Positions 23,192 to 60,674 of a stretch of DNA of 64,000 nucleotides are shown here, in pieces; the stretch's first letter is position 1, and each line of letters opens with the position of its first letter. The position numbers and the translations under genes were made by a program. The notes under the pieces are model-generated. The model was not told the DNA's origin. It did no database searches and worked only from the letters and a program-made list of their open reading frames with translations. This stretch comes from a virus. The DNA lies in the IMG/VR virus record IMGVR_UViG_3300045988_158927, positions 1 through 64,000 of that record; one strand, 5' to 3'.

Positions 23192-25422
23192 CCGTTTCCC
23201 TCCGCTGGTATCAGCAAAACGCGGTTGATGCCGTCCTCAATACGGACCTCAAAAACCCGGTACTCGGCTTGCCGACGGGCTGCCACGCAGCAGGACATCC
23301 TATCCTCATGTTTGACGGCTCTATCAAGCGCGTTGAAGATGTGCGCGTAGGTGACGTTCTCATGGGGAATGATGGGACGCCGCGCAATGTTCTGATGTTG
23401 CGTGGTGGCCGGTCTCGTATGGTTCGTATCGAGGGCGACGGCTTGTCGTTCGTCGTGAACGAAGAGCATAAGCTTCCGGCCGTGTTTCGTGGGCGAGATT
23501 CCGTCTTCAAGGCAAAGAAACTGATCGGGCATCCGTTCCAGTTTTTTCGTAGCGTATCCGGCTCGATTGTTCGCATTGAGGGACGTGCTACGAGTGCACC
23601 CAAAGATTTCTTCTTCGGTTTCACTGTAGACGGCAATAACCGTTACCTCGATGGGAGTGGCGTCCATCATCGAAACAGTGGGAAAAGCCATACCGCTGCT
23701 GCCATCATCCGGAACATGCTCGATTCTGGCCGGATCAACCGGGCCGTCATCGCTACGCATACCGGCGTTCTGGTGGACCAAAACCATCAGGACTACGTGA
23801 CCCACTGGAAGAAGAGCGAGAGTGTTGGCGTCGTGTCGGCGTCCGTGTCCAGTAAGAAGGACTGGGCCGCTGACGTTGTGTTCGGTTCCGTCGGCACACT
23901 CATGCGCAACCCGGGGAAACTCGGGCCGCGTGACGTGCTGCTGATCGATGAATGCCATAGGGTGTCCTCGGACCCGAAAAGCGGTTACGCCACGCTGATC
24001 AATGCACTGCGCTACCATCGCCCGGAAATGCCCGTCATCGGCATGACCGCAACCTACTGGCGACTGGGCGAGGGGCTGCTATGGGAGGTCGAGAATCCGA
24101 TCTTCGACGGCATCGCCTACGATCTCTGCACTGGCCCGGATTTCACGCGCCTTGTCGATGAGGGATACCTCGCGCCGCTTGTCACGCAGGAAACGTCATC
24201 GCATGTTGACCTTTCCGGCGTTCGCACGCAGGCCGGGGATTTCAACCAAGCAGACCTGTCGGAAGCGGTTGAGCGTTCCGTGGCCGATGCCGTGCCCGAA
24301 TTCTTGGAACTGGCCAAGGACCGCAAACACGGTATGGTGTTTGTCGCCGGGACGGAAAATTGCGAGCGCGTATGCGAGGCCATCAACGAGAACGGAGAGA
24401 AAGCGATCTATGTTCACTCGAAGCTTTCGACCACCGAGAATCAGCGGCGCATCGCAGACTTCAAGGCCGGGGCGTACCGTTGGATTGTGTCCGATGCCTC
24501 ACTGACGACAGGCTTTAACTGCCCGGACGTTGACGTAATCGTGCTGCTGAAACCCACGAAATCATCGGCATCACACGTTCAGATGCTGGGCCGTGGCACG
24601 CGACCTTTCCCGGGCAAGATCAATTGCCTTGTGCTGGACTTTGCCGGGAACATCGGCCGCAATGGGCCAATCAACATGCCCGTCATCCCCAAAGGCGCGA
24701 AGGCCAGAGAGCGCGAGATCAAAGCGAACCTGCCGAAGGTAAAGACGTGCCCATCGTGCGGCCTCGATAACGACATTGATGCGGACGTGTGTGCGAACGT
24801 TGCGTGTGGCTTCCGCTTCCCGCCCGTCGATGAAAAAGAACTGCTGGTAGCTGCCAAGGCATCGAACTTGAAAGCCATGGTTGTCCAGCGCCACCGCTAC
24901 ATCAATCCTTCCAAACTTTGGTTATGGCACGGCCGCACGCATGATGCCGGCGTGCTGATGAACAAAACCGGAATGCGCTTCCTGAAGATCGGGTTGGCCG
25001 GGAAATTTGGCTACACGCTGAATGCCAAGGCCGTGAACGATTTGGGCTATCCGTCGATTGATGAGGCAGTGACCCGCATCACGGAAGAAGGGTTCAATGT
25101 CGGCGCCGTTGCTTGGGATACTGACGTGGAAAAGTACCCGAAGAAGGCCCGGAATGCCGGCGAGGTGAACCCGCGTGACCTGTATTGGTTCCCGCTGATC
25201 AACGGGGAATGCCGTACCGCCTTCATCGCGTCCGTGTGCAGTGAGAAACCGATCAGTATCGACCTGATCAAGCGTGGCGCCGAAATTGTCGGGGTGAAGC
25301 ACGTGCATCATTCCTATATCCAAGAGCAGGCCCGCCTAGTGCGCGTTGCTATGCAAAAGCGTCATATCCCGGTAACATCCGATTCCGTCGCCAAGTACAT
25401 CGATTCCATCAACCAAGACTGA
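23188..25422 (+). CDS. SF2 (DEAH-type) DNA helicase, interrupted by a mini-intein
   Basis: ATGA-coupled start. Motif I is split (GLPTG | intein | SGKSHTAA). Motif II is LLIDECH, motif III GMTAT, motif VI QMLGRGTR. A C-terminal Zn-ribbon reads CPSCG...CANVAC. Confidence 0.85.
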   Translation: MTVSLRWYQQNAVDAVLNTDLKNPVLGLPTGCHAAGHPILMFDGSIKRVEDVRVGDVLMGNDGTPRNVLMLRGGRSRMVRIEGDGLSFVVNEEHKLPAVFRGRDSVFKAKKLIGHPFQFFRSVSGSIVRIEGRATSAPKDFFFGFTVDGNNRYLDGSGVHHRNSGKSHTAAAIIRNMLDSGRINRAVIATHTGVLVDQNHQDYVTHWKKSESVGVVSASVSSKKDWAADVVFGSVGTLMRNPGKLGPRDVLLIDECHRVSSDPKSGYATLINALRYHRPEMPVIGMTATYWRLGEGLLWEVENPIFDGIAYDLCTGPDFTRLVDEGYLAPLVTQETSSHVDLSGVRTQAGDFNQADLSEAVERSVADAVPEFLELAKDRKHGMVFVAGTENCERVCEAINENGEKAIYVHSKLSTTENQRRIADFKAGAYRWIVSDASLTTGFNCPDVDVIVLLKPTKSSASHVQMLGRGTRPFPGKINCLVLDFAGNIGRNGPINMPVIPKGAKAREREIKANLPKVKTCPSCGLDNDIDADVCANVACGFRFPPVDEKELLVAAKASNLKAMVVQRHRYINPSKLWLWHGRTHDAGVLMNKTGMRFLKIGLAGKFGYTLNAKAVNDLGYPSIDEAVTRITEEGFNVGAVAWDTDVEKYPKKARNAGEVNPRDLYWFPLINGECRTAFIASVCSEKPISIDLIKRGAEIVGVKHVHHSYIQEQARLVRVAMQKRHIPVTSDSVAKYIDSINQD
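23281..23676 (+). mobile_element. 132-aa mini-intein (Hint domain only) in the helicase P-loop
   Basis: It starts with Cys (CHAAGHPILMFDG, block A). The block B-like segment is VVNEEHKLPAV. The block F/G-like segment is FFFGFTVDGNNRYLDGSGVHHRN, followed by the +1 Ser of SGKS. Removal restores PTGSGKS. Confidence 0.8.
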
Positions 25423-39733: not shown

Positions 39734-39761
39734 AAGGGGGTTGCAAGCCCCCTTCTTTTTT
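39734..39761 (+). terminator. rho-independent terminator
   Basis: AAGGGGG-ttgcaag-CCCCCTT followed by CTTTTTT. Confidence 0.8.
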
Positions 39762-39812: not shown

Positions 39813-39968
39813 ATGAAACAAGCTACCTTCTTCCAAGGTTCACAAGAACCCATCGCCAAGAAAAACAAGGATTTGCGCGAGTATCTGCGCGTCAATCGTG
39901 AGCGCCATAAGCGCAAGCTTGAGCGCGCTTTCATGAAAGCCACGCTTGCCGAATATGCGTCGGCGTAA
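39813..39968 (+). CDS. small basic protein (51 aa)
   Basis: MKQATFFQGSQEPIAKKNKDLREYLRVNRERHKRKLERAF... No RBS, so weakly supported. Confidence 0.35.
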   Translation: MKQATFFQGSQEPIAKKNKDLREYLRVNRERHKRKLERAFMKATLAEYASA

Positions 39969-40058
39969 GTCTTGGTTCCGCATCTTCCTTGTGGCCCGCA
40001 TCACTCTCTTCCGTAGCGGGCCACTGAAAACCTTCCTTTCCCTCGTATGGAGGCTCAA

Positions 40059-40247
40059 ATGAGCAGCGAGAAAGTAACCCACGAAATCAAAGAATACGCG
40101 GATATCTGCCGGGGTATTGTGGTCAGCATTTATAACCGCAATATCGCTACCGGAGATTACGATGAAAAAAAGGCGCAAAACATGGAGCATGCACTTTCGC
40201 AATATTGGCTTTCTCTTGAGATCATGAAGCTTGAAAAAGAACTATGA
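40059..40247 (+). CDS. hypothetical protein
   Basis: RBS GGAGG 6 nt before the ATG at 40059. Confidence 0.5.
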   Translation: MSSEKVTHEIKEYADICRGIVVSIYNRNIATGDYDEKKAQNMEHALSQYWLSLEIMKLEKEL

Positions 40248-40603
40248 TGTACGTTGAGTTTTTGACACAAGAAACGGCAAAGAAAATCCGCGAGATGACA
40301 GTTTCTTTTGACGCCTACACTCTTCTGCATCCGATGAGATATGGCGACTATTGTGCCGTCTATCGTTCCTATTTGCGCGAAGTGCTGGCGCTGATTCGGA
40401 AGAACATCAAGGCATACGTTAACGGCGAAGCTGTCGAAACCTTTTATGCACAAATCATCGTCGATTCTGAAACCGTTTCAAAAATGCAAGACCGTGCCGA
40501 ATACTTCATCAGGGTGAAGCTATTCAAGCCTGTCGAGTATCTGGGCGAGATCGCTGCCGCTTTGGCGCATGAACTGGGCGAGAAACAAGAGGAAACCAAA
40601 TGA
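40244..40603 (+). CDS. hypothetical protein
   Basis: ATGA coupling, 119 aa. Confidence 0.5.
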   Translation: MMYVEFLTQETAKKIREMTVSFDAYTLLHPMRYGDYCAVYRSYLREVLALIRKNIKAYVNGEAVETFYAQIIVDSETVSKMQDRAEYFIRVKLFKPVEYLGEIAAALAHELGEKQEETK

Positions 40604-40818
40604 GATACGAAAACATCAGCAACCCGCAACAAAAGATGCTTGCCGCGCTTGGCGACATTGCTGCACGCAAGAAGCAAATCCGCGATGCAGTGGCCATCAT
40701 TGACAACCTTGTGCAGCACGAATGGCATGTTGAGGGCGCGGAGCTGCTGAAACTCTTCTCGGCCTCGGCCGCCCTTGTGACCATCGTTGAGATTCTGGAC
40801 GAGGCATTGCCGGAGTGA
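40600..40818 (+). CDS. small helical protein, distant member of tandem family
   Basis: ATGA coupling, 72 aa, with the same two-helix-block layout as the following genes. Confidence 0.5.
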   Translation: MRYENISNPQQKMLAALGDIAARKKQIRDAVAIIDNLVQHEWHVEGAELLKLFSASAALVTIVEILDEALPE

Positions 40819-40822
40819 CGGA

Positions 40823-41062
40823 ATGAAGATCGAAGAGTACGAAGCCGTCATGAATGGCATTTTTGTCCATGATACGGATGCAGCAAAAGAGATTGTCCAG
40901 TTTGCAAGCAATGTGCTAGAGGCGCTTCTCGATAATGACGAAGCGGAAGCGTATCGAATCGACGTTACAAGAGCAGCAAATATGCTTTACATGCTGAATT
41001 CAGAGATAAAGAACGGTCATCTTGACCTTGTTAAGGCGGCCGACGGAGTGAAACCGGAGTAA
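40823..41062 (+). CDS. small helical protein, tandem family member
   Basis: RBS GGAG. MKIEEYEAVMNGIFVHDTDAAKEIVQFASNVLEALL...AANMLYMLNSEIKNG. Confidence 0.6.
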   Translation: MKIEEYEAVMNGIFVHDTDAAKEIVQFASNVLEALLDNDEAEAYRIDVTRAANMLYMLNSEIKNGHLDLVKAADGVKPE

Positions 41063-41067
41063 GCGAC

Positions 41068-41292
41068 ATGAAAGACAACGAATACGATGCTCTTTGCGAT
41101 GGAATCGTGAGGGGAAGGTGTGACGCCGCAAACAAAGTGCTTCAGTTTGTGGAGGACTTGCTGACTGTCATTCTCTAAGATGGATCGGCCGGTAAGCACG
41201 AAGTCAACGTGGATCAAGCGGCAAACTTGCTCTTTCTCTTGAATCAAGAAATCAAGATCGAGAGTCTCTGGTTTGAATCGGCAGCAGACTGA
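41068..41292 (+). pseudogene. tandem family member interrupted by an in-frame TAA (41176-41178)
   Basis: MKDNEYDALCDGIVRGRCDAANKVLQFVEDLLTVIL * DGSAGKHEVNVDQAANLLFLLNQEIKIESL... Both halves align with the 40823 paralogue across the stop. Confidence 0.6.
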
Positions 41293-41323
41293 ATTAAATC
41301 GGCGTAAGAGAAGAGAGGAAAGC

Positions 41324-41755
41324 ATGGGCATCAATTTTGAATCGATCAAGATCGAAACCGATTTTACGAAGGAACTGCAAGAGCTTGAGAAGGTATATGC
41401 CGAAAAAGAGACAATTGAGCTTGCCAAAAAGAAAGCGGCTTGCTTTGACGCTTTGATTGTCTATCTGGACGATTTGCGGCGCATCCGAGAGCAATACACG
41501 GCATTCCGCATGTATTACTTCGATGATTACCCGGAAGGCGATGATGAGCCGCGAGTGAACAAGGATGAAATCATCTTGGATTCCATGATCAGGATCATGG
41601 ACGCATCTAAGAGCGCGTTGCATAACCAAATTCTGGGGCGCGGGTATCGCAAGAATAACCCCAAATTTGAAGAGGAAATGAAGCGCATTCATAAAGCGAT
41701 TGAAGCTAGATTTGGAGGTGAAAATTTTCGGCCTCAAAAAGATGAGCGATTTTGA
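41324..41755 (+). CDS. hypothetical coiled-coil protein
   Basis: RBS AGAGGAAAGC then ATG at 41324. The segment KKKAACFDALIVYLDDL resembles RKAAAFDEIAGEIVGL in the 42459 product. Confidence 0.55.
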   Translation: MGINFESIKIETDFTKELQELEKVYAEKETIELAKKKAACFDALIVYLDDLRRIREQYTAFRMYYFDDYPEGDDEPRVNKDEIILDSMIRIMDASKSALHNQILGRGYRKNNPKFEEEMKRIHKAIEARFGGENFRPQKDERF

Positions 41756-41990
41756 CGCGGTTTTGGCCGGCGTGAAGAACGGAGACCGTGATTCAATGCA
41801 GAAGGCCATCGCTCACGTCATTGATATTTTGGCGGAATTTCTGCCGAAAGATCGGGACTTTCTGATAGAAGGAGAAGGAGCGGTTTTCGAGACGGTTTAC
41901 CTCATGGCTGAGCTGAAAGAATTGCTCAAAGGAAACCGGATTCAAATCGTTTCCGAAGGTGGCGCGGGGAAGGATAATGAACCAAAGTGA
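41742..41990 (+). CDS. small helical protein, tandem family member
   Basis: MSDFDAVLAGVKNGDRDSMQKAIAHVIDILAEFL...VYLMAELKELLKGNRIQIV. Confidence 0.55.
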   Translation: MSDFDAVLAGVKNGDRDSMQKAIAHVIDILAEFLPKDRDFLIEGEGAVFETVYLMAELKELLKGNRIQIVSEGGAGKDNEPK

Positions 41991-42201
41991 ATTTGAGGCG
42001 CTCTTCGACGGAATGTTGTCCGGTGACACTGAGTGCATCAAAGAGATCATACAGAACGGCGCGAACATGTTGCTCGCACTCACTCAATGCATGTCCCCTG
42101 ATCTTGTCCGCCAAGAACAACGAGACGTTGCGAGTCTGATGCTTGAGCTTTCGTCTTTGATCGAGATGGGCGGACTTCAAATCGTCGATGGCGAGAAATA
42201 A
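41977..42201 (+). CDS. small helical protein, tandem family member
   Basis: RBS GGGGAAGGA. MNQSEFEALFDGMLSGDTECIKEIIQNGANMLLAL...ASLMLELSSLIEMGGLQIV. Confidence 0.6.
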   Translation: MNQSEFEALFDGMLSGDTECIKEIIQNGANMLLALTQCMSPDLVRQEQRDVASLMLELSSLIEMGGLQIVDGEK

Positions 42202-42203
42202 TC

Positions 42204-42455
42204 ATGGATGAATACGAAAGAATTGCAAGAAAAATCGATGCTTGGGACGAAAGCGCGGTTAAGGAAACTCTTCAGTTTGTGTATAAGACTTTGCAAAGCG
42301 TTCAAACCGAGATGCTCGATCTAGGCAAGTATAGTGATGATGTAGAAACAGCGAGCTGTCTTTCAATGATCTTGCTTGATGCTTTGGATTTTGGAAGTAT
42401 CTTGGTCTCTTCCAAGCGCAAGCAACCCAAAAGCAAGAATCTCAAAACGGAGTGA
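42204..42455 (+). CDS. small helical protein, tandem family member
   Basis: MDEYERIARKIDAWDESAVKETLQFVYKTLQSV... Confidence 0.55.
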   Translation: MDEYERIARKIDAWDESAVKETLQFVYKTLQSVQTEMLDLGKYSDDVETASCLSMILLDALDFGSILVSSKRKQPKSKNLKTE

Positions 42456-42458
42456 ACA

Positions 42459-43073
42459 ATGAAAATTGAAGAATACACTGCGCTTACAGAATCCATCGAT
42501 AAAGGTGAGGTAAGGGCGGTCTATAACGCGCTCAAATTCTCTGCCGGTGTCTTGGAAAACATTGGCAAGCAATTGCCGCCAGATGTCCGCCGAGAAGAGG
42601 TAGAGCAGGCTCTTTACCTTACATGGAGATTGTGTGACGTGGTTATGTTCCATACCATGCCTGCGAGCTACTGGCGCGGTCCGGAAAAGCAGGAACAACG
42701 TCCGCCAGTAGCAGACGATGACGATTTCATCACGCGGTCGAGTTATGAAGATCACTGGCAGAACAAGGGCCGGCAATTCTTTGAGGATTTAGCAAAGAAC
42801 ATCCGCGAACGTGAAGCCGGCGACAAAGTGAAGGGGGTAGAAGAAGACACCCAGAAGGCCAAGCAAGAGCGAGCCATTCTTGAGCGGAAGGCGGCCGCGT
42901 TCGATGAGATCGCCGGGGAAATTGTCGGCCTTTACCGTGCAGTTAATACGGTACGTGCATGCGTGGATGGCGACTGCGACCAGTATAAAGTTCATCTTGC
43001 GATGATTGACGCTATGTTTTCGCTTGGCGTCGTTGCGCAAATCATCGTAAAAACCAAAGAGGACGCGGCATGA
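42459..43073 (+). CDS. tandem family N-terminal module fused to a ~140-aa extension
   Basis: RBS GGAG. MKIEEYTALTESIDKGEVRAVYNALKFSAGVLENI..., then a coiled-coil extension. Confidence 0.6.
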   Translation: MKIEEYTALTESIDKGEVRAVYNALKFSAGVLENIGKQLPPDVRREEVEQALYLTWRLCDVVMFHTMPASYWRGPEKQEQRPPVADDDDFITRSSYEDHWQNKGRQFFEDLAKNIREREAGDKVKGVEEDTQKAKQERAILERKAAAFDEIAGEIVGLYRAVNTVRACVDGDCDQYKVHLAMIDAMFSLGVVAQIIVKTKEDAA

Positions 43074-43312
43074 TGGTAAAGATTCCTTACGACACTGAAG
43101 AATTGGCTTATGGAATTGCCACCGACGACAAGAATTCCATGAAAGTAGCAATAAACATTGTTACTAGTGTGTTATTCCATGCCTCGAATAACAGTAGCTT
43201 GAGCGAAGAGGACAAAGATTCAATCAAAAAGGCATTCCGGATTGCTTCTGTGTTTCAGTGGTGGATAGATAACGAAATGGTTCAGGTTCAAATGAAATGG
43301 GAGGATCAATAA
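43070..43312 (+). CDS. small helical protein, tandem family member
   Basis: ATGATG coupling. ...EELAYGIATDDKNSMKVAINIVTSVL... Confidence 0.5.
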   Translation: MMVKIPYDTEELAYGIATDDKNSMKVAINIVTSVLFHASNNSSLSEEDKDSIKKAFRIASVFQWWIDNEMVQVQMKWEDQ

Positions 43313-43467
43313 TGCTCAACAAAGACGAACTTGAAAAGCTCTACTCGCAACTGATCGAGGTCCGGCGTCATGGCGACATTGCGAAACTGAATGCAGCCAT
43401 TCAGCTAGTGGCCATGGCCCTTGGCGAATCAATTTCTACGAGCGACGAATGGGCGAGCGAGAGTTAA
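43312..43467 (+). CDS. 51-aa N-terminal-half-only family member (below the track cutoff)
   Basis: TAATG coupling. MLNKDELEKLYSQLIEVRRHGDIAKLNAAIQLVAMALGES... It ends 19 nt inside the next ORF. Confidence 0.45.
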   Translation: MLNKDELEKLYSQLIEVRRHGDIAKLNAAIQLVAMALGESISTSDEWASES

Positions 43468-43760: not shown

Positions 43761-44190
43761 TGAATCAGCCCGCGTCTATCGTGGCGTCCCCCCGGCATTC
43801 GCCCTTTGGATTGAGCGCCTCGACGATGACGCGATGATGGATGCCGTCGATTGCGTCTATGTCACGCGGGCATGTGCGCGTGAGCTGGCCGTCGATCCGC
43901 TGAACGTCGCGTCCGTCATGAATCAATCAGACCGCTACGGCGCGCTGGATCAGTGGATCAACCGGCAGGGGATGGCGCTAGTGGCCATGGCTGCGCTGGC
44001 AGACGGGCATGAGTACGCGCTACGATGGGTCCATCCGGACGATGTGGCTGGGGTGAAACGCCAGATTGACAAACTCAAGGGCAACCCGTACCATACATAC
44101 ACTTTCCAAGACGCCATAGAGGCAACATCCCACCATGAAACGTATTCTTCCCCTGATCCTGATCCTGCCCGCGCTGGCCTCGGCCGGTGA
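43702..44190 (+). CDS. hypothetical protein
   Basis: 162-aa ORF. It overlaps both neighbours by more than 50 nt, so the start is uncertain. Confidence 0.4.
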   Translation: MQTRPHQYLEATPEILAALDESARVYRGVPPAFALWIERLDDDAMMDAVDCVYVTRACARELAVDPLNVASVMNQSDRYGALDQWINRQGMALVAMAALADGHEYALRWVHPDDVAGVKRQIDKLKGNPYHTYTFQDAIEATSHHETYSSPDPDPARAGLGR

Positions 44191-44380
44191 ATACGAGAAA
44201 CTGACCGCCAGCGAGCAACAAGAGGCCGCACTGATGTGCCGTCTCTATCAGCCGGACACGGCTGATATGTCAGACTGCCTCGAATCCCGCGCATCGATGC
44301 TGTTGCTTGTGCGCGAGGTTGCCGAGGCATACGAGCAATGCCTGAAGTCCGGCTACGCAGACTGCGAGCGCCGTATCTGA
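44135..44380 (+). CDS. small secreted Cys-containing protein
   Basis: Signal peptide MKRILPLILILPALASA/GE. The mature part has four Cys. Confidence 0.55.
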   Translation: MKRILPLILILPALASAGEYEKLTASEQQEAALMCRLYQPDTADMSDCLESRASMLLLVREVAEAYEQCLKSGYADCERRI

Positions 44381-44405: not shown

Positions 44406-45125
44406 ATGCTCTCCTTCAAACCCAAATTCAACTATTTCATTCAGGACATTATCATTTCTGACGTGACGCTTGAAAAAATCCGCGTCGGCAGCATCAAAGT
44501 GCCCGGACTGAACCATAAGCAGTTTATGGGCATGTCTCTCTCTTCCATTGGAAACACGGTTGCAGATCATTACGGAGAATTGATGAAAACCTATAGTCAA
44601 GACGAGCCGTCGTGGATGTCCGTTATCTACGATACGGACGCCATTCCCTACGTTTCGATGGATAACGCATGGCGTGCAGCCGGATGGCATGATTACGTAT
44701 TGACCGCTGGGGAGATCGCGTCAGATTCGCGGATCGGGCAAGCCGAGATGATCGGAAAAACCAATCTCGGGAAAACGAATGTCTACCTCGTAACCGAGTT
44801 TTCCAGCATCGATGCCCCGATGGTGGCCCGCGCAATCAATCACGCTTGCAACGTCATCCCCGGCTTTGAGCCGATTGCGCAGGGATATCGTGTGTCAATG
44901 GCAAGCACGCTTGTCGATGCACTGGAAACTCTGAACGAACGTCACTATGTCGGTGTCGCGCTACGAGACCCAAGCGACGAAGACCGGCGGATGATGAAGG
45001 CGGCGCGTGTGCGATTTTTCGATACCACAGACATACACGGTGAATCCGTCGTCATCATTGGATACAACACAATCCCGAATCCGTTCATTAAGCACGATCT
45101 TCAGGCCGTGGCGAAATACTTCTGA
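44406..45125 (+). CDS. hypothetical protein
   Basis: RBS AAGGAAC, 239 aa. Confidence 0.6.
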   Translation: MLSFKPKFNYFIQDIIISDVTLEKIRVGSIKVPGLNHKQFMGMSLSSIGNTVADHYGELMKTYSQDEPSWMSVIYDTDAIPYVSMDNAWRAAGWHDYVLTAGEIASDSRIGQAEMIGKTNLGKTNVYLVTEFSSIDAPMVARAINHACNVIPGFEPIAQGYRVSMASTLVDALETLNERHYVGVALRDPSDEDRRMMKAARVRFFDTTDIHGESVVIIGYNTIPNPFIKHDLQAVAKYF

Positions 45126-45535: not shown

Positions 45536-45733
45536 ATGATTTACATCTACGCGGCTTGCGTTCTGTCATTGATCGGCGCGTTTACGGCGCGGCAGGTTAA
45601 GCGTGCCTTGAGCTATGAGAAAGGCGCATCGTGGCAGTATTACCTTCTTTGCCTTGTGAAAGACGCGGCTGAAGTGGCGCTGTTCTCGTTCGCTATCGTT
45701 GAGCTGCTGGACTACGTAAAAGTAGCGGCATGA
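45536..45733 (+). CDS. small membrane protein (65 aa)
   Basis: RBS GGAGG then ATG at 45536. MIYIYAACVLSLIGAF...AEVALFSFAIVELL. Confidence 0.55.
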   Translation: MIYIYAACVLSLIGAFTARQVKRALSYEKGASWQYYLLCLVKDAAEVALFSFAIVELLDYVKVAA

Positions 45734-45746
45734 TGGATGGTCAGCG

Positions 45747-45974
45747 ATGAAAACAAGCGATCTTCGTGAATTTTGGGATGCCTTTGGTCCGGTAATCATA
45801 GTTTTCGGGCCAACTCTTGTCTTTTATTTGTTTTTGGCATGGGTAGCAGTAACAAAGACGCCTAATGAAACTCATGTTTCAAAATCACACAATGCCACAG
45901 ATCGCCATGTGACGTCATGTGCGACGATACGGGTAAATGTCGAGAATGGGCGAATTGTTGAGGGGCGGCAATGA
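45747..45974 (+). CDS. small membrane protein (75 aa)
   Basis: TM FGPVIIVFGPTLVFYLFLAWVAV. Confidence 0.5.
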   Translation: MKTSDLREFWDAFGPVIIVFGPTLVFYLFLAWVAVTKTPNETHVSKSHNATDRHVTSCATIRVNVENGRIVEGRQ

Positions 45975-46204
45975 ATATGCCGCCACGTTGGAAGATAGAA
46001 GATGCAATACTGAATTGCGTGTCCTATGCGTTCGTTGTTGCATTTTTCTCTCTTCCGATCATCGTGTTACTTTTCGTAAGTGACGCACCAAAACCGCCCG
46101 AATGTCTGGTCCAAACAACCGAACGCGGAAACCGCTTGCATATCGTGCTGGATTGCCCTATGATTCCTTCATCCGCTCTCGAAGCACCCACCGATGAGAA
46201 GTGA
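45971..46204 (+). CDS. small membrane protein (77 aa)
   Basis: ATGA coupling. TM VSYAFVVAFFSLPIIVLLFV. Confidence 0.5.
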   Translation: MNMPPRWKIEDAILNCVSYAFVVAFFSLPIIVLLFVSDAPKPPECLVQTTERGNRLHIVLDCPMIPSSALEAPTDEK

Positions 46205-51638: not shown

Positions 51639-52130
51639 ATGGGGCACCCCATGAAGAACGTTCTATTCAAGTTTGAAACGCTGTCGGAGAATGATCCGGC
51701 GGCCAAGAAAATCAAAAGCGCCTTTCTGAAGCTCGGCTGCAACGTCGTGGAAATGGCAGTGGGCAAGCCTAAGCGTAGTGCTGGCGTGAGTTACAAGGAA
51801 TTCGACTTCACTTTTGCCGATTCCCAGCGCGTGACGGCCCGTATCAAGCCCACCGGAGACGTGTATCAAGTGCTGCTGAATGGCAGCGTTTTGCCGCTGA
51901 AGAATCAGGATGAGCACCAAAAGGCCATCGAGGAAATTGCGTCGAAGCTGGACGGTGGGCGCGCTGCATTCCAGAAGAAGCTGGCACGTACCAAAGTAAC
52001 TATCCCTGCTGGCATCCGTAACACGGTCAAGGAAACGGAGAAATCCCTGACCGAGAAGCGCGACGCTCTGAAAGAGGTTATTGCCGATCTCGATAAGAAG
52101 ATCGAGGAAGCCACCGAGGCGCTGAAATGA
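51639..52130 (+). CDS. hypothetical protein sharing a module with the next gene product
   Basis: VGKPKRSAGVSYKEFDFTFADSQRVTARI resembles VSKPFKKNGTAQVAVVYELADGQTIGIYF in the 776-aa protein. C-terminal coiled coil. The start could be 51639 or 51651. Confidence 0.5.
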   Translation: MGHPMKNVLFKFETLSENDPAAKKIKSAFLKLGCNVVEMAVGKPKRSAGVSYKEFDFTFADSQRVTARIKPTGDVYQVLLNGSVLPLKNQDEHQKAIEEIASKLDGGRAAFQKKLARTKVTIPAGIRNTVKETEKSLTEKRDALKEVIADLDKKIEEATEALK

Positions 52131-54457
52131 TTCACGGCCTAAAGATGCTGACCGAGGCGCAACGCAAGGCGCGCAACGGCAAGGTCCAGCGCACTACGTT
52201 CGGCCCGCTCTCGTTATGCGTGGAAATCCCGGCAGGCTGGAGGAAAGGGGCGTCGTTCCTGACGGCTCACTACGGCTACATTTCCGGCACGAAAGCCCCG
52301 GATGGCGCGGCTATCGATATGTTCCTGTCGCCGCAAGCAAGCGTGACGGCTGACGTGTTTGTCATCGACCATATGAAGGGCGGCAAATTCGACGAACCTA
52401 AAGTGTTCCTCGGGTTCACTTCCAAAGTGGATGCCGAGGAAACCTATCGGAATGTATACGCGCAACGTGCGCCAGCAACCAAAATGACGATGACGCAGTT
52501 TCAACAATGGATGAAGGAAGGGGGCGCAATGCAACCGACGATCAAGGAAGAACCTAAGCTTCAAAAAGTCTACTGGGACAGTAACGGAGACCCGGATGTC
52601 CCGATGACGGAAATTCTCTACCAAATCCGCAAGACCGACCCTACTAGCCTTGCGCTTGAGCCGCTGACGCTTGACGACATCTACGGCGACGCTGACGAAA
52701 TCGTGGAGCTTGATGCTCTGGTAGTGCCCATGATGCGCCTTGAGCGCGTGGCCGGCATCATGCAAAACCAGATGAAGCGGTACGGGTCCGAGGCGCTTAA
52801 CTTCCAAGTGAGCAAGCCATTCAAGAAGAACGGCACGGCTCAAGTGGCGGTTGTCTATGAGCTTGCCGACGGCCAGACGATCGGCATCTACTTCCACAAT
52901 CCGGACGTGACACCGGCCAAGATCGCGCCGCAAGATGAGCTGATTTCTTGGAAATGGATGCTCAACAAGAAGGACATTACGATCCTTGTGGCGCCGGAAA
53001 AAGGGCAGGATTTGGACCCGCGTGAAGTGATGCGCCGCGTGGCCAAGATCGCCATCAAAAATCGTCCGACGTTCGAGCGGAACAACGCTGCCCGCGTCGA
53101 GCGTGTGGCGCGTGTGGAGGCGCTTAAGGCTGAAATTGTCGTTCTTGAAAAGGAAGTGGACGACAAGACGCATGAGCTGGAAATTCTCCGCATGAAACTC
53201 GAAGAGAAGCGGAACATGCCGGCACCTGAACCTGAGCCCGCGCCTGAAGTGATGCCTGAACCTGAAGTTGCGAGCGGCTCGAATGATGCGCCTATTCAAG
53301 AAGTCAAGAAAGGTAGGATGAGTAAGTATGATCCGGCGGTGGCAGCAGCCCTAGAGGAAAAGATTGCTAACCTTAATAGATTTTCTGATGTCAGAGACCT
53401 TCAGACTGCTATCCGTGACGCTGAACTTTCGCGCAATGATAAAAAGCGAATCAAGGAGATGTTGGAGCAGCGTGTAAGCGATATGAACCATGAGCGGTAT
53501 CTGAAAAAACAGGAAATGCTTAAAGAATTTGGCGAGCAATTGAAAGCCGCTGAATTTGAAGAGGAATTGTCTTTGGTTGAGGCGTTCATTCACAAAATCC
53601 CGGGTATTGATGAAGAGCATATGTCGCATCTTTATACGAGTATTAGTGACAAGCGCAGAGAACTTCAAATAAAGAAGAAAGCGGAAGAACGCAAAGCCGC
53701 CGAACAAGCCAAGCAAGCCGAGCCCACGCCCGAAGATCCGAAGGAAGAAACCCGGGAAGAGCGCGTGACCCGTCTGCATGACGCGGTTATGGTCCTGATC
53801 AATTCGGCCACGTCCATCGAAGACATTCGGAAGCTGAAGAAATCCGCGACGTTCAATGAATTCCGCTATGTCACCGAGGACACTTCAAGGGCAGCCGATT
53901 TCAATCAGCAGCGCGAGAGCATCCGCACGGCTCTCTACACCAAGAGCGCGGAACTGAACATGCCGCTCTACAACGAGATCATGCGCGAGATTCAGGCGGC
54001 TACTAGTGAGGCTGGTGTTTTGACGGCGCTTGAGAAGGTCGAAATGGTCCGGAACGACTTCCCGCCAGCCCAGCGTAACGAGATCACGCAGGCCGCCGAG
54101 GCACGCATTGAGGCACTGAATGCCGTTCCTGAGCCGCAAGCTACGCCGCTGCCTGAAGTGCAGTCGCCTATGCCAGAGGAACCCGCGCCAGAACCCGTCC
54201 ATGAGCCGGCGCCAGAACCCGTCGCGGAACAACCAGCCGAGGCAGTGAATGCTACGCCGCTGAATGCCCTGGTTAACCCGCAAGAAGCCGCCGACCGGGC
54301 CTATCTCGAAACGTTCGACCCGGCCACCGCTGACGATGCGCGCTTGGAAGAGATTGCTGCCCGCTACACGTCCGGCGAGATGTTGGAACTGCTGGAAAAG
54401 GCTTTGGCCAAATACGAGGAATACATGGTGGCTGCTGCCGAGGAATCGATGAAGTGA
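52127..54457 (+). CDS. 776-aa multi-domain protein: pyrophosphatase-fold-like N-terminus, central module, long acidic helical C-terminus
   Basis: ATGA coupling. LCVEIPAG...AHYGYISGTKAPDGAAIDMFL...DEPKVFLGF echoes family I PPase VIEIPA...NYGYI...DGDPVDVLV, but the loop is shortened and one Asp is lost. E/K/P-rich tail. Confidence 0.5.
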   Translation: MIHGLKMLTEAQRKARNGKVQRTTFGPLSLCVEIPAGWRKGASFLTAHYGYISGTKAPDGAAIDMFLSPQASVTADVFVIDHMKGGKFDEPKVFLGFTSKVDAEETYRNVYAQRAPATKMTMTQFQQWMKEGGAMQPTIKEEPKLQKVYWDSNGDPDVPMTEILYQIRKTDPTSLALEPLTLDDIYGDADEIVELDALVVPMMRLERVAGIMQNQMKRYGSEALNFQVSKPFKKNGTAQVAVVYELADGQTIGIYFHNPDVTPAKIAPQDELISWKWMLNKKDITILVAPEKGQDLDPREVMRRVAKIAIKNRPTFERNNAARVERVARVEALKAEIVVLEKEVDDKTHELEILRMKLEEKRNMPAPEPEPAPEVMPEPEVASGSNDAPIQEVKKGRMSKYDPAVAAALEEKIANLNRFSDVRDLQTAIRDAELSRNDKKRIKEMLEQRVSDMNHERYLKKQEMLKEFGEQLKAAEFEEELSLVEAFIHKIPGIDEEHMSHLYTSISDKRRELQIKKKAEERKAAEQAKQAEPTPEDPKEETREERVTRLHDAVMVLINSATSIEDIRKLKKSATFNEFRYVTEDTSRAADFNQQRESIRTALYTKSAELNMPLYNEIMREIQAATSEAGVLTALEKVEMVRNDFPPAQRNEITQAAEARIEALNAVPEPQATPLPEVQSPMPEEPAPEPVHEPAPEPVAEQPAEAVNATPLNALVNPQEAADRAYLETFDPATADDARLEEIAARYTSGEMLELLEKALAKYEEYMVAAAEESMK

Positions 54458-54533: not shown

Positions 54534-57500
54534 ATGACAGTTATTGAGAAGCTGAAGCTGATCAAAAACCTGAAAGCTGCACAAGCCCTTCCCCGCGACA
54601 CGATCCCTCAACGCCTCGCACGAATCAAGGCCATCAAGGCCGCGCTTGATGCGCTCAAAGGGGCAAAGGCTGAGGAACGTACCGCCGAGAAGGAATCCGT
54701 AGAAGCAGCGTTCAAGTTTGATGCAGAACGCAAGACCGCCGAACGCAAGAAGGCCAATGATGCGGCCTATGCGCTGCTGCAAAGCCTCGATGAGGGCAAG
54801 ACACTCACCGAAGAAGAAAAGGCCGTGCTGGCAGCGTATAGCGGTTGCGGCGGCGGTCTGATCAACCCGCTTACCGGAAAGACGGGCAGCGCGACGGAAT
54901 ACTACACGCCGAAGCCTATCGTCTCGGGCATGTGGGACATGCTGGGCGAATCGTTCGGGTTCAAAGGCGGTAAAGTGCTGGACCCGAGTAGCGGTACCGG
55001 CATTTTTGGGGCGACGGCGCCAAAGGGTGTCGTTATGCAAAGCGTGGAAATCAGCGAGGTTTCCGGCAAGATCAACAAGGCGCTTAACTCGAAAACCGGC
55101 AATAACGTTGCCATCGAGCCGTTCGAGGGCTTCGCAGCGCGCACGCCTGACGGCACGTTCGATGCTCTGGTAACTAACGTTCCGTTCGGTGATTCCGGTA
55201 TCCGGACTGCCAAAGGAATGGACCAGAAATATCAGGATCAAAGCCTGCAAGGCTACTTCCTGCTGCGCGGCCTCGATAAGCTGAAGCCGGGCGGCCTGAT
55301 GGCCGTGATTCTGCCGGGTAGTGTCGTTGCCAATCGTGGGGCACGTGAAACCAAAGTGCGGACCATGATCAGCCTGAAGGCCGAATTTTGCGGCGCCATC
55401 CGCTTGCCTAACAGTGTCTTTGAGACAACCGGCGCTGACGTGATTACGGACGTTGCCGTATTCAAGAAACACGGGACTGACGCGGCTGAAAAGATTGATG
55501 CTCTTTTCCGTGCGGGAAAATCCGATGAACTGCGAGAAATGGGCGTTCTCTATGAGGAATTCATCGACGGCAATTGGTTCAAGGGCGAAGGACGCAAGTA
55601 CCTGCACGGCGAGGAAGTGACCGTTAACGGGCGCTGGGGCGAGACGCAGAAAGTCGTTTCAACCAAAAGCGTTACGGAAATCGGCCCCCTGCTGCGAGAG
55701 CTTCGCTTCAAATCGCGCATCAACTGGGATGCTCTGGGGGCGGCTGATGTAAGCCTTGCCTATGACGTGGGCGACGAGATTACGGCACCAGATGGCACAC
55801 TGATGCGCTGGGACGGTGAAACGTTCGTGGAGGTCCAGCGCGCCGAAGCGAAGGTCAACCCGTTTGCCAAGGTCATCGAGGCAATGGACCTGACCGCGCT
55901 TCAGTTCTACTACGCAGACTTCAGTGACGATGAGGTGGCCGGCGCGCTGCAATACGTTGCAGACAATAACGTATCCGTCAAACCATGGGTCAATACGCTG
56001 AACCTTGGCAAGCGCATTGATGTTCTCGTTTGCGCGGCCGTCGAAGCGTTCGATGAGAAAGCCCCGACCGATAACCTTGGTGAAGAGCATCCGCGCCTGA
56101 CCGAGGACGTGCAAGCTTCCATCAAGGCAGCACGCAACGTCACGCCGAAAGAGAGCGCGAAAGGCGTCTACAACCGATTCAAGGCGTTTACCGATAGTGG
56201 CGTTCTGTCGCCCGTTTGGTTCGGGCAGGTGGCCGAGCTGAAGACTATCGAGAGCAATGCAGCCAAATTCGAGGTCGCAAAAGGCAGTCAGAAATGGGTC
56301 GGCATCAATGAGATGCGCAAAGCCGGCATTGACGTTGACGGTGAAGAATTCGTCCACAACGGCGACAAGGTTGCGCTGATGGATGAGGTCTGCACTGGCA
56401 AGGCCGCTGAAGTTATCGAGGCACTGAAGAACGCTGACGTACCGCCTGAGCGCAAAGCCCGTCAGATCGCGCTTGCGATGGAACGTATCGAGAAAATCGA
56501 CGTTTCCAAGATGATCTTTACGCTTACGACGAAGTACGTGTCAGCGGATGCTAAGGCGGAATTCCTGACCCTGTACGTGAGCAAATCGAACTATTCAGGC
56601 TTCCAAGCGCATGATGACATTGTTGTGCTGCCGGCGTCTGAGGTAAAGTATGTAGCGTTCGGGAACGTTGACAAACTGTTCGTGCGCGCACTTGTCGGCT
56701 ACGTGAACGATGGTCGCGTGTCGTTCGGGAACCTGAAGATTGACGGCGTTTCTGATGATGAGCAAAAGCAGGCGAAGCGCGACCTTCTCGACGACTATCG
56801 TAAGTACCTGAACAAGCTTGATACGCAATTCAACCTGTGGGTTCACTCGAATCGTGCGCTGAAAACCGCGCTGGATATCCGCCTGAATTCGGCTGAGAAC
56901 GCCTTCTTCAAAACGCAAGCCAGCGACGGCCCGCTGACGATTCCCGGCCTGTCCGGTGATATCCAACTGCACGGCTATCAGCGCGCTTTCGTGCGCAAGA
57001 TCGCAGCGCGATTCAATGGCATCAACTCGTTCGATGTGGGCCTCGGCAAGAGTTTCACGGCACTGGCCAGCGTGCAGTATGCGCAAGCCATCGGCGCGAA
57101 GAAAAAGACCGTTTTCGTCGTGCCAAAGTCCGTCATCACAAACTGGGTGAAGGAAGCCAACCGCCTGTTTTCCGCTGACGTTGCCAATGACATTCTGGTA
57201 GTCGGTGCCGTCGAGAAGAAAGGAAAGCTTGACGTTGATTCCAAGCGATTCGACGCAGATTTGCAGCGCATCGCGGATAACGTTCACTCGAAGATTTTCA
57301 TGACGGCCGAAGCATTCCAGCGTATCCGCATCCGGGAAGAGGATGTTAAGGAATATCTGGACGCCATGCGCCTGAACGACCGCGATGCTTACGGGGACAA
57401 AATTTCTGACGCTGATAGCAATCGTGTAGAAAGCCGTCTGTATGCCATCGAGAAGATTCTCACGGAAGACGGCAAGAGCGAAGGCGCGCCGTTTTGGCAT

Positions 57501-60500
57501 ACGCTGGGCATTGATTCTGTCGTGTTCGATGAGATGCACGTGAACAAGAATGCCGTGATTGCCATCGGTGTGCGCGGCGCCAAATTCCTGTCGCTGCCGC
57601 CTGCATCCAAGAAATCCGTGGACGTGATGTGCAAGACTTGGCTGATCCGTCGTGACCATGGTTCCGGTGTGCTGGGCCTGACCGCTACGCCTATCACTAA
57701 CTCGCCGCTGGAAATCTACGGGATGATGTCCATCGTGGAAGGCATGGACGCAGTGAATGATGCGTGCGGCGTCGCTGGACCGGGCGATTTCATCAAGGAA
57801 TCTGTCATCGTCGAAAACCGTGCAGAACTCGGCGTGGACGGCGAAGAGCGGATGATGGATGTTTTCGTCGGCTTGAAAAACACGCAGATTCTGGCGCGTC
57901 TCGTTCGTGGCGTGTGCGATATCAAGACGGCCGCCGACGCCGGGAACATTGTCCAGCCTGACAGTGAAGAGGTGGTGCAAGGCGTGCCGCTGGATAACGA
58001 CACGGACCGGCAATTGCGTCGGATGATCCTTGCCTACCAGATCATGCAGGGGGCGGTTGACGCAGGCCCGGAAATCCCCGAGCGCGTGGCAGAGGTTTAT
58101 GGGTCCAAAGTCAAGACGCTGATGTCCCCGCTCAACCTTCTGTCGAATATGTCGAAACTGATGGTTGATGAGGACGCGGCCAAGAAACGCACGGTCTATA
58201 TCGGTGGTTCCGAAGAGCTTACGGAGAAATTCAACGGCCTGAAGATCAAGGAGAAACGCGCCTATGGCCCGCGCCTTGATGCAAGCGAGACGGTCAAAGT
58301 GACGGTCAATCCTGAAGACGAGGAAGACGTTGAATTCATCGTCCAGATTGGGGCAGTCTTCGATGGTGGAAAGACGATCATCGATACAACGTCATGGGAG
58401 ACTCAAGACAAATTCGAGGCACTTGCCGCGAAGCTTGACGTACCCTTGGACGTGAAGCCGTCGGAGAAATTCAAGGCCCTTATCGAGAACATGAAGGCCG
58501 AGGCTGCTAACGTGCGCGGCATCAAGAATGGCGAGCGCATCGAGCATGCCAAGCAGATCGTCTTCTGCGACATGCTGGCAACCCATAACAAACTGAAGCG
58601 GTTCATTTGCTCACGTATGGGCATCCCCGCCTCGGAGGTCATCATCGTTACGGGTCAGCGTAACGGTTCGCCTGAAGAAATTCAGGACGTGCAAGACGGG
58701 TTCAATGACGGACGCTATCGCATCATCATTGCCAACGAAAAGGCCGAGGTCGGCATCAACCTGCAAAAAGGCACGCAAGCTATCCATCACCTGACGATTG
58801 GATGGACTCCGGACAGTTTGCAGCAGCGTAACGGACGTGGCGTTCGGCAAGGTAACGAGACCGCGAAAGTGAACGTCTATTACTACGATGCCGAAGGTAC
58901 TTTCGACCAGATGAAGCGGTCAATGGTCAACAAGAAGGCCGACTGGATCGAGAAGGTAATGACGGGCGAAGGCCGCACGGTGGCCGTGAATGCCGGCCTG
59001 ACACGCGAGCAAATGGACGCGCTGATCGATGGTATGGGCGACGCCGAGAGCATTGCCAAAGCGCAAGCCCAAGCGGAAGAGAAAGCCAAGAAGGAAGCGC
59101 GTAACCGTGCCGTCACTCAACAGATGATCATGATTGAGGTTGCGCAAAAGAGCGAGGAAGAGCTGAAAAAGGCGGCCGATATGGCAAGCTGGGCCACGTC
59201 GATGATCAACAAGCTTATTACGCCGATCAATCAGCAACTGGAAGTCTCGCGCAAGCAATTGGCACTGTCTCGCAGTGATAAGACCAAGGAACGGCTTACG
59301 CAGACCATTGCCGAGCTTGAGAAGCGGCAGGGTGAAATCAGGACGCGCTATCGGAACTATTCTGATCCGTCCGTGCGTGAGGAATGGCAAAACGACATTG
59401 AGGCGCTGCAAGATAGCGTCAAGAGCGCCAATGAGCAGGTGGAGAACCTGTCTGGCGATGGCGGCCTGAATGAACGTGAAATCCAGCACGTCAAGGACGG
59501 AGAGTTCTTCAGGGTTGGCGATGAACTTGCTTTCCCGGGTCAGTTTGTCATGACCAAAAACGACGGTATCGGGGTTGTCGTGAAGAACATCAGGAAATCC
59601 CTTTGCCTCGCAACTCTTCGCAAGGATGATAGCCGGCGTTCCGCTGCCTTGGATACCTCCCCGGTCGGCATGGAGCGACTGATCGATGAGGATAAGGTTC
59701 CTCACGACATTCTGAAAGAGTTTGCCAAGATCGATACGTATCAGGCGATGCAGGAAGAGGAAAGAACGTTCGAGACCGTTAAGGCGATCACGCAATACAC
59801 GCAGGTTGTCGCCAAATGGAAGGGCGACCTTGCTAACGTTCTGTGGAAAGAGGGCGTACCCGTTCTGATGATGGGTTCCTACGGTTATCCGCTGTTCGGG
59901 ATTAGCCGTGATGCGCATCGGGATTCCGTCATCAATTACGATCCGTATAGCGTCGCCACGCTCAAAGATGATGGCACATGGACCGAGGTTGACATTGAAA
60001 CGACGGCTGCTGCTGCCGCGCAATATCTGATCTCGATTGATGCTGTTATGAGCGATTTGATGGTGGTACGGAACGAGAAATTCCGGAAGCTTCTGTCCCA
60101 GAACATCGAGAACCATTACCTCAAAGACCCGGCCATCGTTGAGCAGGCAATCGAACTGGCCAAGCAGGAATACTCGTCATACCGTTACGGTAGCTACGAC
60201 ATTCCAAAAGTGGCGCGGATGCTTTCAATCCTTGGCCTTCGACGTGCGGCAAAACTGCACTACAACCTCTATTCGGCAGAGGATTTCCCGGGCGTGGAAT
60301 CGATGCAGGGTCAGATGGAAGTGTTCGTCAAACAGGCCCGCGAAGAGGAGGAGCGCGTTAATCAGGAATGGGAGGAGAAGAAACGGCGAGAGCGCGAAGA
60401 GGCGGAAGCCAAGGCAGCACAAGATGCGGCGAACATGGAGAAATGGGTGTCCGAGGGCTTCCCGGCTGATCAGGAATTCGGCATCACTGGATTCCGCACG

Positions 60501-60674
60501 TTCGGCTTTAAGGATCGGATCAAGCAGGCTGAACAAGAGGCAGGCGGTAAAGCCCGCTGGCACGGTGACAGCAAGCAATGGATCATTCACGGGAAGGCGC
60601 TGGACAAACTGTTCAAGGATGAATCGTTTGCCGATGCCGTCAAGGAAAAAGAGCTGATCATCAAGCCCGTCTGA
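54534..60674 (+). CDS. polyvalent protein: N6-adenine DNA methyltransferase + SNF2/SF2 helicase + ~600-aa C-terminal region (P1 DarB-like)
   Basis: MTase motif X EYYTPKPIV, motif I VLDPSSGTGIFG (nt ~54975), motif IV LVTNVPFG (nt ~55176). Helicase motifs: LHGYQRAF...DVGLGKSF, FDEMH (57528), LTATPITNSP, QQRNGRGVRQG (~58821). Confidence 0.8.
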   Translation: MTVIEKLKLIKNLKAAQALPRDTIPQRLARIKAIKAALDALKGAKAEERTAEKESVEAAFKFDAERKTAERKKANDAAYALLQSLDEGKTLTEEEKAVLAAYSGCGGGLINPLTGKTGSATEYYTPKPIVSGMWDMLGESFGFKGGKVLDPSSGTGIFGATAPKGVVMQSVEISEVSGKINKALNSKTGNNVAIEPFEGFAARTPDGTFDALVTNVPFGDSGIRTAKGMDQKYQDQSLQGYFLLRGLDKLKPGGLMAVILPGSVVANRGARETKVRTMISLKAEFCGAIRLPNSVFETTGADVITDVAVFKKHGTDAAEKIDALFRAGKSDELREMGVLYEEFIDGNWFKGEGRKYLHGEEVTVNGRWGETQKVVSTKSVTEIGPLLRELRFKSRINWDALGAADVSLAYDVGDEITAPDGTLMRWDGETFVEVQRAEAKVNPFAKVIEAMDLTALQFYYADFSDDEVAGALQYVADNNVSVKPWVNTLNLGKRIDVLVCAAVEAFDEKAPTDNLGEEHPRLTEDVQASIKAARNVTPKESAKGVYNRFKAFTDSGVLSPVWFGQVAELKTIESNAAKFEVAKGSQKWVGINEMRKAGIDVDGEEFVHNGDKVALMDEVCTGKAAEVIEALKNADVPPERKARQIALAMERIEKIDVSKMIFTLTTKYVSADAKAEFLTLYVSKSNYSGFQAHDDIVVLPASEVKYVAFGNVDKLFVRALVGYVNDGRVSFGNLKIDGVSDDEQKQAKRDLLDDYRKYLNKLDTQFNLWVHSNRALKTALDIRLNSAENAFFKTQASDGPLTIPGLSGDIQLHGYQRAFVRKIAARFNGINSFDVGLGKSFTALASVQYAQAIGAKKKTVFVVPKSVITNWVKEANRLFSADVANDILVVGAVEKKGKLDVDSKRFDADLQRIADNVHSKIFMTAEAFQRIRIREEDVKEYLDAMRLNDRDAYGDKISDADSNRVESRLYAIEKILTEDGKSEGAPFWHTLGIDSVVFDEMHVNKNAVIAIGVRGAKFLSLPPASKKSVDVMCKTWLIRRDHGSGVLGLTATPITNSPLEIYGMMSIVEGMDAVNDACGVAGPGDFIKESVIVENRAELGVDGEERMMDVFVGLKNTQILARLVRGVCDIKTAADAGNIVQPDSEEVVQGVPLDNDTDRQLRRMILAYQIMQGAVDAGPEIPERVAEVYGSKVKTLMSPLNLLSNMSKLMVDEDAAKKRTVYIGGSEELTEKFNGLKIKEKRAYGPRLDASETVKVTVNPEDEEDVEFIVQIGAVFDGGKTIIDTTSWETQDKFEALAAKLDVPLDVKPSEKFKALIENMKAEAANVRGIKNGERIEHAKQIVFCDMLATHNKLKRFICSRMGIPASEVIIVTGQRNGSPEEIQDVQDGFNDGRYRIIIANEKAEVGINLQKGTQAIHHLTIGWTPDSLQQRNGRGVRQGNETAKVNVYYYDAEGTFDQMKRSMVNKKADWIEKVMTGEGRTVAVNAGLTREQMDALIDGMGDAESIAKAQAQAEEKAKKEARNRAVTQQMIMIEVAQKSEEELKKAADMASWATSMINKLITPINQQLEVSRKQLALSRSDKTKERLTQTIAELEKRQGEIRTRYRNYSDPSVREEWQNDIEALQDSVKSANEQVENLSGDGGLNEREIQHVKDGEFFRVGDELAFPGQFVMTKNDGIGVVVKNIRKSLCLATLRKDDSRRSAALDTSPVGMERLIDEDKVPHDILKEFAKIDTYQAMQEEERTFETVKAITQYTQVVAKWKGDLANVLWKEGVPVLMMGSYGYPLFGISRDAHRDSVINYDPYSVATLKDDGTWTEVDIETTAAAAAQYLISIDAVMSDLMVVRNEKFRKLLSQNIENHYLKDPAIVEQAIELAKQEYSSYRYGSYDIPKVARMLSILGLRRAAKLHYNLYSAEDFPGVESMQGQMEVFVKQAREEEERVNQEWEEKKRREREEAEAKAAQDAANMEKWVSEGFPADQEFGITGFRTFGFKDRIKQAEQEAGGKARWHGDSKQWIIHGKALDKLFKDESFADAVKEKELIIKPV

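Follow-up and report, generated by a model that had tools for sequence, protein, structure and literature searches.

A tandem family of small acidic three-helix proteins in a hypervariable island of a metagenomic phage clade

The DNA analysed here, positions 1 to 64,000 of the IMG/VR virus record IMGVR_UViG_3300045988_158927 (64,000 nucleotides; hereafter the window), comes from a phage with a genome of about 90 kb whose packaging and head genes are P1-like. On its plus strand, 40047-43467 is filled by a dense run of short genes, most of which have GGAG-type Shine-Dalgarno sites. We find that 40823-42713 encodes six coupled paralogues of an acidic domain of ~75 amino acids, which is modelled confidently as a three-helix bundle. 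These are the proteins m2, m3, m4, m5 and m6, together with the first ~85 residues of m7 (Table 1). The family is real and smaller than claimed by a first-pass annotation, which had proposed nine tandem paralogues, and it is an orphan, new as a protein family. The genes lie in a hypervariable mosaic island between far more conserved flanks, an arrangement that fits an accessory, conflict-driven locus.

Membership of the family was assessed in two ways. The nine candidates, with neighbouring genes as controls, were aligned pairwise by the Smith-Waterman method and scored against 200 shuffles per pair; in a leave-one-out test, profiles built from five members were ranked over the 842 stop-to-stop segments of the window, with a criterion of E < 1e-3. 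Every core member reached a z-score of at least 6.3 with at least one partner, and the highest value was 21.6 (m2-m3). The left-out member was the first-ranked of the non-training segments in all six profiles, with E values of 5.9e-18 (m2), 1.7e-7 (m3), 7.8e-5 (m4), 1.4e-10 (m5), 5.4e-6 (m6) and 1.4e-8 (m7). In five of the six profiles m8 (43070) came next, with weak E values of 0.014-0.67. Its only pairwise signal was to m4 (z = 4.3) and its hhalign probability against the core was 5.8%; on account of these E values and this probability we treat it as borderline, possibly a very distant member. The two remaining candidates are not supported: m1 (40600) and m9 (43312) each gave z ≤ 2.4 to all core members, with hidden Markov model (HMM) E values of 56 and 43 and hhalign probabilities of 3.4% and 5.3%, respectively. 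Six of the nine proposed paralogues thus stand, one is borderline and two are unsupported. Among other proteins of the run, the 'up' family was rejected as a relative of the core (hhalign probability 0.2%), as was homology between protein 'c' and the m7 C-domain via a KKAAxFD-like motif (z = 1.7, hhalign 0.6%). No DNA-level direct repeats longer than 28 nt were found within the array, so the paralogues are old.

The organisation of the locus agrees with the earlier description of mostly start/stop-coupled genes: all lie on the plus strand, with gaps of 2-5 nt or overlaps of 1-14 nt. The gene at 42459, described there as fused to an extension, does encode an N-domain joined to a C-domain of ~120 amino acids, in which the motifs SSYExHWxxKG and E+KAxAFDEI are invariant. 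The proposed layout of an N-terminal block followed by a second amphipathic helix gives way to a different one. An AlphaFold2 model of m2, built with a 17-sequence alignment, is a three-helix bundle with helices at residues 3-14, 18-37 and 41-63 (mean predicted local distance difference test score (pLDDT) 86.4, predicted template modelling score 0.73), and the N-terminal helix is integral to the bundle, with a pLDDT of 93 for residues 1-10. The model of full-length m7 has the same three helices and three long, low-confidence helices in the C-domain (pLDDT 60). All members are acidic, with isoelectric points of 4.05-5.0 and net charges of -3.5 to -9.5. The columns conserved among 15 sequence types are E5, Y6, G12, G16, D17, Q26, L32, L54, L58, I62, G65 and V70.

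Neither sequence nor structure searches connected the family to anything described. Scans of the nine candidates and 'c' against Pfam, PHROGs and NCBIfam gave no significant match. With the m2 model, Foldseek found no PDB match at E < 2.7 and no BFVD match at E < 1, while the best matches in a sequence-profile search of the PDB were only de novo designed bundles (E ≥ 0.06). By tblastn, m2 and m7 had no match in 50,697 GenBank phage records and m7 none in 72,556 PLSDB plasmids. Near-identical DNA was absent from GenBank phages, PLSDB plasmids and E. coli genomes, an alignment-based locus search found no stretch conserved enough, and a literature search for a directly comparable locus returned nothing specific. 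A word-indexed search of 5.8 billion proteins yielded 82 matches, all of them metagenomic proteins on contigs of up to ~91 kb, with source annotations such as 'hypothetical protein' and 'MAG TPA: hypothetical protein [Bacteriophage sp.]', and an exhaustive HMM search of 1.84 billion representatives recovered only ~14 genuine clusters at 50% identity. All relatives that could be traced to a contig belong to one clade of ~90-kb metagenomic phages. It is this lack of matches in Pfam, PHROGs, NCBIfam, PDB, BFVD, GenBank phages and plasmids, together with the mere ~14 clusters, that makes the family an orphan; the first-pass view of a real, diversified tandem family belonging to no known one is borne out.

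Long proteins in the exhaustive search were rejected as relatives, being ankyrin or other repeat proteins that have a generic helix-GD-helix hairpin in common with the family. Ankyrin and tetratricopeptide repeat (TPR)-like hairpins resemble the array members in the motif F/Y-x-A-L-x-x-G-x-x-x-G-D-x-x-A-x-x-x-L, and weak profile matches over several stretches were seen to the repeat proteins P0091, P0093, P0095, P0096 and P0099. However, ankyrin and TPR proteins are solenoids, whereas an array member is predicted to be a closed single domain of one hairpin plus a third helix, and no Pfam repeat model matched. Such matches seem to have arisen by convergence on a common type of hairpin.

To describe the variability of the locus, we compared nine syntenic genomes, the window and the contigs L001, L002 and L004-L009. 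Flanking genes mostly share 86-100% amino acid identity, against 28-100%, in mosaic fashion, for the genes of 40047-43073, which delimits an island of ~3 kb and agrees with the earlier description of a diversified locus. Each genome encodes four to seven three-helix domains in varying order. In the window the order is m2, m3ψ, c, m4, m5, m6, m7, m8, m9; L007 has m3, m4, c', m5, m5', m6', m7, with m5 duplicated, and L006 has neither c, m2, m5 nor m8. In L005 a frameshifted m5 is fused to m6, and in L004 an unrelated 75-aa gene takes the place of m2 and m3. The helical protein encoded in that slot also occurs in L006 (L004 9398-9625, L006 7009-7236), and its two alleles are 33% identical. Protein c is present, absent or moved among relatives, and m1, m4, the m7 C-domain and m9 are common to all nine genomes. 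The 'up' gene is tandemly duplicated in L001 (9104-9996) and L008 (2970-3862), where the second copy is fused in frame to m1 (178 aa). The m7 C-domain carries at least six family-type N-domain types across genomes: in L008 an m6-type head is joined to it, and two deletion fusions, P0097 (m3N::m7C) and P0212 (m4N::m7C), are on record. Disrupted alleles occur on several contigs. The diversity of the locus is the product of ancient paralogy and of the gain, loss, replacement and fusion of cassettes.

Six or more head types on one C-domain, the L008 arrangement and the two deletion fusions would also suit a more specific scheme, which we consider improbable, in which m7 is a specificity-switching effector. 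Its constant C-terminal domain would do the 'business' or mediate oligomerisation, its three-helix recognition head would be exchangeable, and the free-standing paralogues upstream would also serve as a reservoir of heads to be fitted by recombination or deletion, analogous to cassette switching in tail fibres and pilins but intracellular.

Two lesions mark the array in the window. At the in-frame TAA of m3, relatives carry CAA (Gln; P0011, P0015, L001), and both halves of m3 around it match the family profile. Because three contigs, of up to 89.7 kb, are on record with a 36-aa truncated product (P0094), we read the TAA as a real nonsense allele, probably one in circulation rather than a sequencing error. 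Compared with L004, 7 nt (AATGAAT) are deleted where the c stop and the m4 start overlap (window ~41695-41705). The deletion removed the c stop, so that c is 143 aa here, 15 longer than the usual 128-129 aa. It also removed the usual m4 ATG, which leaves TTG 41700 or ATG 41742 as the m4 start in the window; in relatives m4 starts 14 codons upstream (MNLDLEVK...).

The ratio of nonsynonymous to synonymous substitution rates (dN/dS), estimated by the Nei-Gojobori method from 4-7 genomes, was 0.11-0.33 for family members and 0.03-0.29 for flanking genes. The open reading frames (ORFs) are thus translated and constrained, which answers the doubt, raised in the first-pass annotation itself, that most of them might not be. 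The arms-race selection proposed there is not seen: orthologues are under purifying selection, and pervasive positive selection is not evident.

The reading we favour, tentatively and at slightly less than even likelihood, is that the array is an accessory one, its small acidic products binding other proteins in the service of anti-defence or host takeover. The proteins would be soluble, would bind other proteins stoichiometrically without acting as enzymes, and would all be made together from one operon starting after the terminator-like hairpin at 39734; since that hairpin precedes the island, the island probably heads a transcription unit of which the hairpin is the upstream boundary. The conserved positions, including the GD turn and a short 'G-x-L-x-I-V' tail, would form the scaffold. 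The remaining surface differs between paralogues, so each may recognise a different partner. Host defence or other host proteins would be the likeliest targets, making the array an anti-defence or host-takeover accessory module, whose breadth would come from several paralogues carried together and exchanged by recombination and deletion.

Known systems offer partial parallels. Colicin and pyocin DNase immunity proteins (Im7/Im9, PF01320) are acidic, all-helical proteins of ~85 aa that act as non-enzymatic, high-affinity inhibitors, with paralogues of differing specificity that may lie in tandem. The array members are likewise small, acidic and all-helical. However, Im proteins have four helices rather than three, the array has no adjacent toxin gene, and no Pfam match to PF01320 at E ≤ 1 and no Foldseek match to any PDB chain, those of Im proteins among them, was obtained. 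Anti-defence islands, such as anti-CRISPR loci, the SPO1 host-takeover module and leading-region clusters, resemble the array as operons of tiny orphan proteins with high turnover, and in that they too head a transcription unit. They typically mix unrelated genes, whereas the array consists of paralogues of one fold.

Several results weigh against the binder interpretation. The three helices are almost equally variable (entropy 2.1-2.3 bits), and no obvious specificity patch stands out. Selection is purifying and, compared with the flanks, relaxed to a modest extent only, so codons bear no direct mark of an arms race. No member is linked by homology to any target or to a defence system. Within the island we found no anti-defence or host-takeover activity, no target and no known anti-defence neighbour: Pfam, PHROGs and NCBIfam gave neither an Aca-like helix-turn-helix regulator nor a known Acr or anti-defence family there, Pfam and PHROGs gave no known anti-defence gene or Aca-type regulator when the immediate neighbours were included, and the closest gene resembling a regulator lies 5 kb off, at 48802. 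No host was found, as m4 and the terminase had no match in 185,579 GTDB species genomes, and early expression is suggested by the position of the island only.

If the proteins are inhibitors, the clade offers 15 or more natural variants of one minimal, confidently modelled scaffold, and the differences between near-isogenic phages would make a handy system for mapping how targets are acquired. The locus would also yield new activities, anti-defence or host-modulating, from a human-associated phage clade without a cultured member. Without a function, the family just joins the many orphans of phage accessory islands; orphan paralogue arrays in hyperplastic accessory islands of phages are an ordinary kind of locus.

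A role within the phage itself, though unlikely in our view, is the alternative that fares best. The proteins could be adaptors, chaperones or regulators of replication, recombination or morphogenesis, or could serve competition between phages (superinfection exclusion), with the m7 C-domain and c as partners. The array does lie between nucleotide-metabolism and replication genes on one side and RecT and terminase on the other, m4, m7C, m1 and m9 are present throughout the genomes compared, selection is purifying, and the conserved tail (G65, V70) and the H1-GD-H2 region could bind one common partner. Yet alleles of 28-60% identity, presence or absence of whole genes, nonsense and frameshift alleles and N-domain swaps would be unusual for partners of core machinery, and the replication genes are more than 90% identical.

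Less probable still is that these are capsid-packaged internal (ejection) proteins like those of the T4 internal protein (IP) locus, with the N-terminus as a targeting or processing signal and the remainder as anti-restriction cargo injected alongside Dar proteins. The phage does encode what appears to be a Dar-like anti-restriction module, comprising a 776-aa protein with an inorganic-pyrophosphatase-like (InPase) domain and DarA_N (52127-54457) and a 2046-aa N6-methylase/SNF2-helicase protein resembling P1 DarB (54534-60674), and in P1 proteins of the DarA/DarB type are packaged in the capsid. These two are the only window genes matching P1 Dar components, and nothing in PHROGs or Pfam relates the array members to P1 Hdf, DdrA, DdrB or Ulx. 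T-even IPs form a diverse anti-restriction set with only the capsid-targeting sequence in common, of which IPI* acts against GmrSD (PMC3012670), and the T4 signal, MKTYQEFIAE (PMC8442874), is superficially like the MKIEEYEAV and MNQSEFEAL of array members. The T-even IP locus (IPI*, IPII, IPIII and variants) also encodes small diversified proteins with a conserved N-terminal portion and differs between close phages, and our island shows the same T4-type hyperplasticity.

The likeness ends there. The IP signal is a cleavable 10-residue element, whereas conservation in the array covers the whole domain, running beyond the ~10 N-terminal residues through helix 2, helix 3 and the tail (L32, L54, L58, I62, G65 and V70), so similarity is not confined to the N-terminus, and the N-terminal helix is a high-confidence part of the bundle. 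There is no sequence or fold similarity, IPI* being alpha/beta and the array members predicted three-helix bundles. The array, moreover, sits amid non-structural genes, with the terminase ~7 kb and the Dar genes ~9 kb downstream of it. Finally, that the ORFs are decaying or spurious, non-functional filler whose similarity is a relic of old duplications, is very improbable: the m3 nonsense allele, the 7-nt junction deletion, the frameshifted m5 of L005 and the truncated products on record speak for decay, but it is largely refuted by the dN/dS of 0.11-0.33 for every member tested, and reading frames are intact in most genomes, start/stop coupling is conserved and the predicted fold is confident.

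Table 1 Features of the island and its upstream boundary in the window.
Feature	Coordinates	Strand	Remarks
Intrinsic-terminator-like hairpin	39734-39754	+	Strong; 9-bp GC-rich stem, then T run
51-aa basic ORF (MKQATFFQGSQEPIAKKNKDLREYLRVNRERHKRK...)	39813-39968		Between terminator and first island gene
66-aa gene	40047-40247	+	First gene of divergence island; 41-56% aa identity to relatives; non-member
up	40244-40603	+	119-aa hypervariable helical protein; 28-58% identity between genomes
m1	40600-40818	+	72-aa acidic protein; in 9/9 genomes compared; membership not demonstrable
m2	40823-41062	+	79-aa core member; protein modelled as three-helix bundle
m3	41068-41292	+	Core member; interrupted by in-frame TAA 41176-41178
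c	41324-41755	+	143-aa helical protein inside array; unrelated to family, clade-restricted
m4	41742-41990	+	82-aa core member; in 9/9 genomes compared
m5	41977-42201	+	74-aa core member; absent from some genomes
m6	42204-42455	+	83-aa core member; two allelic types ~50% identical
m7 N-domain	42459-42713	+	Core member; at least five alternative family-type N-domains in relatives
m7 C-domain	42714-43073	+	~120 aa; in 9/9 genomes; constant, internally mosaic
m8	43070-43312	+	80-aa acidic protein; borderline; presence varies between genomes
m9	43312-43467	+	51-aa acidic protein; in 9/9 genomes, 90-100% conserved; membership unsupported

The setting of the island was examined across the rest of the window. 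The PacB-type large terminase is 32% identical to PacB of the P1 group and 39% to that of Acinetobacter phage ABMM1; other genes encode a PmgG-like head protein, RecT, a DUF3987 primase-helicase and an intein-bearing helicase, and there are no tRNA genes in the window. Upstream of the island are homologues of dUTPase and ThyX, an annotation made on the corresponding syntenic genes in L001 and L002, and downstream are RecT and the terminase. The ~290 nt between the 39734 terminator and the gene at 40047 hold only the 51-aa ORF, which two genomes lack and which is conserved, at 90-100% identity, in the others.

The helicase at 23113-25422 (769 aa) carries a Hom_end-associated Hint (intein) domain. 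At the terminase position, L001 (19015-20240) and L006 (15690-16624) have a 639-aa gene with Hint, and the window has one of 503 aa without it, so intein presence seems to vary between genomes and genes. For many of the longer contigs with these genes the length is close to either 88-91 kb or ~42 kb, and a single contig measures 131 kb; a genome repeat, or an assembly break that recurs, may account for the ~42-kb class. Downstream of the island, an 81-aa protein with a signal-peptide-like N-terminus (MKRILPLILILPALASAGEYE...; 44135-44380), whose gene overlaps the end of a 162-aa gene, is 85-94% conserved in all relatives. Two further divergence hot spots follow it, the first (44406-45125) encoding a 239-aa protein of 60-69% identity between genomes, and the second (45536-46204) comprising several genes of 65-77 aa that are 29-89% identical or absent.

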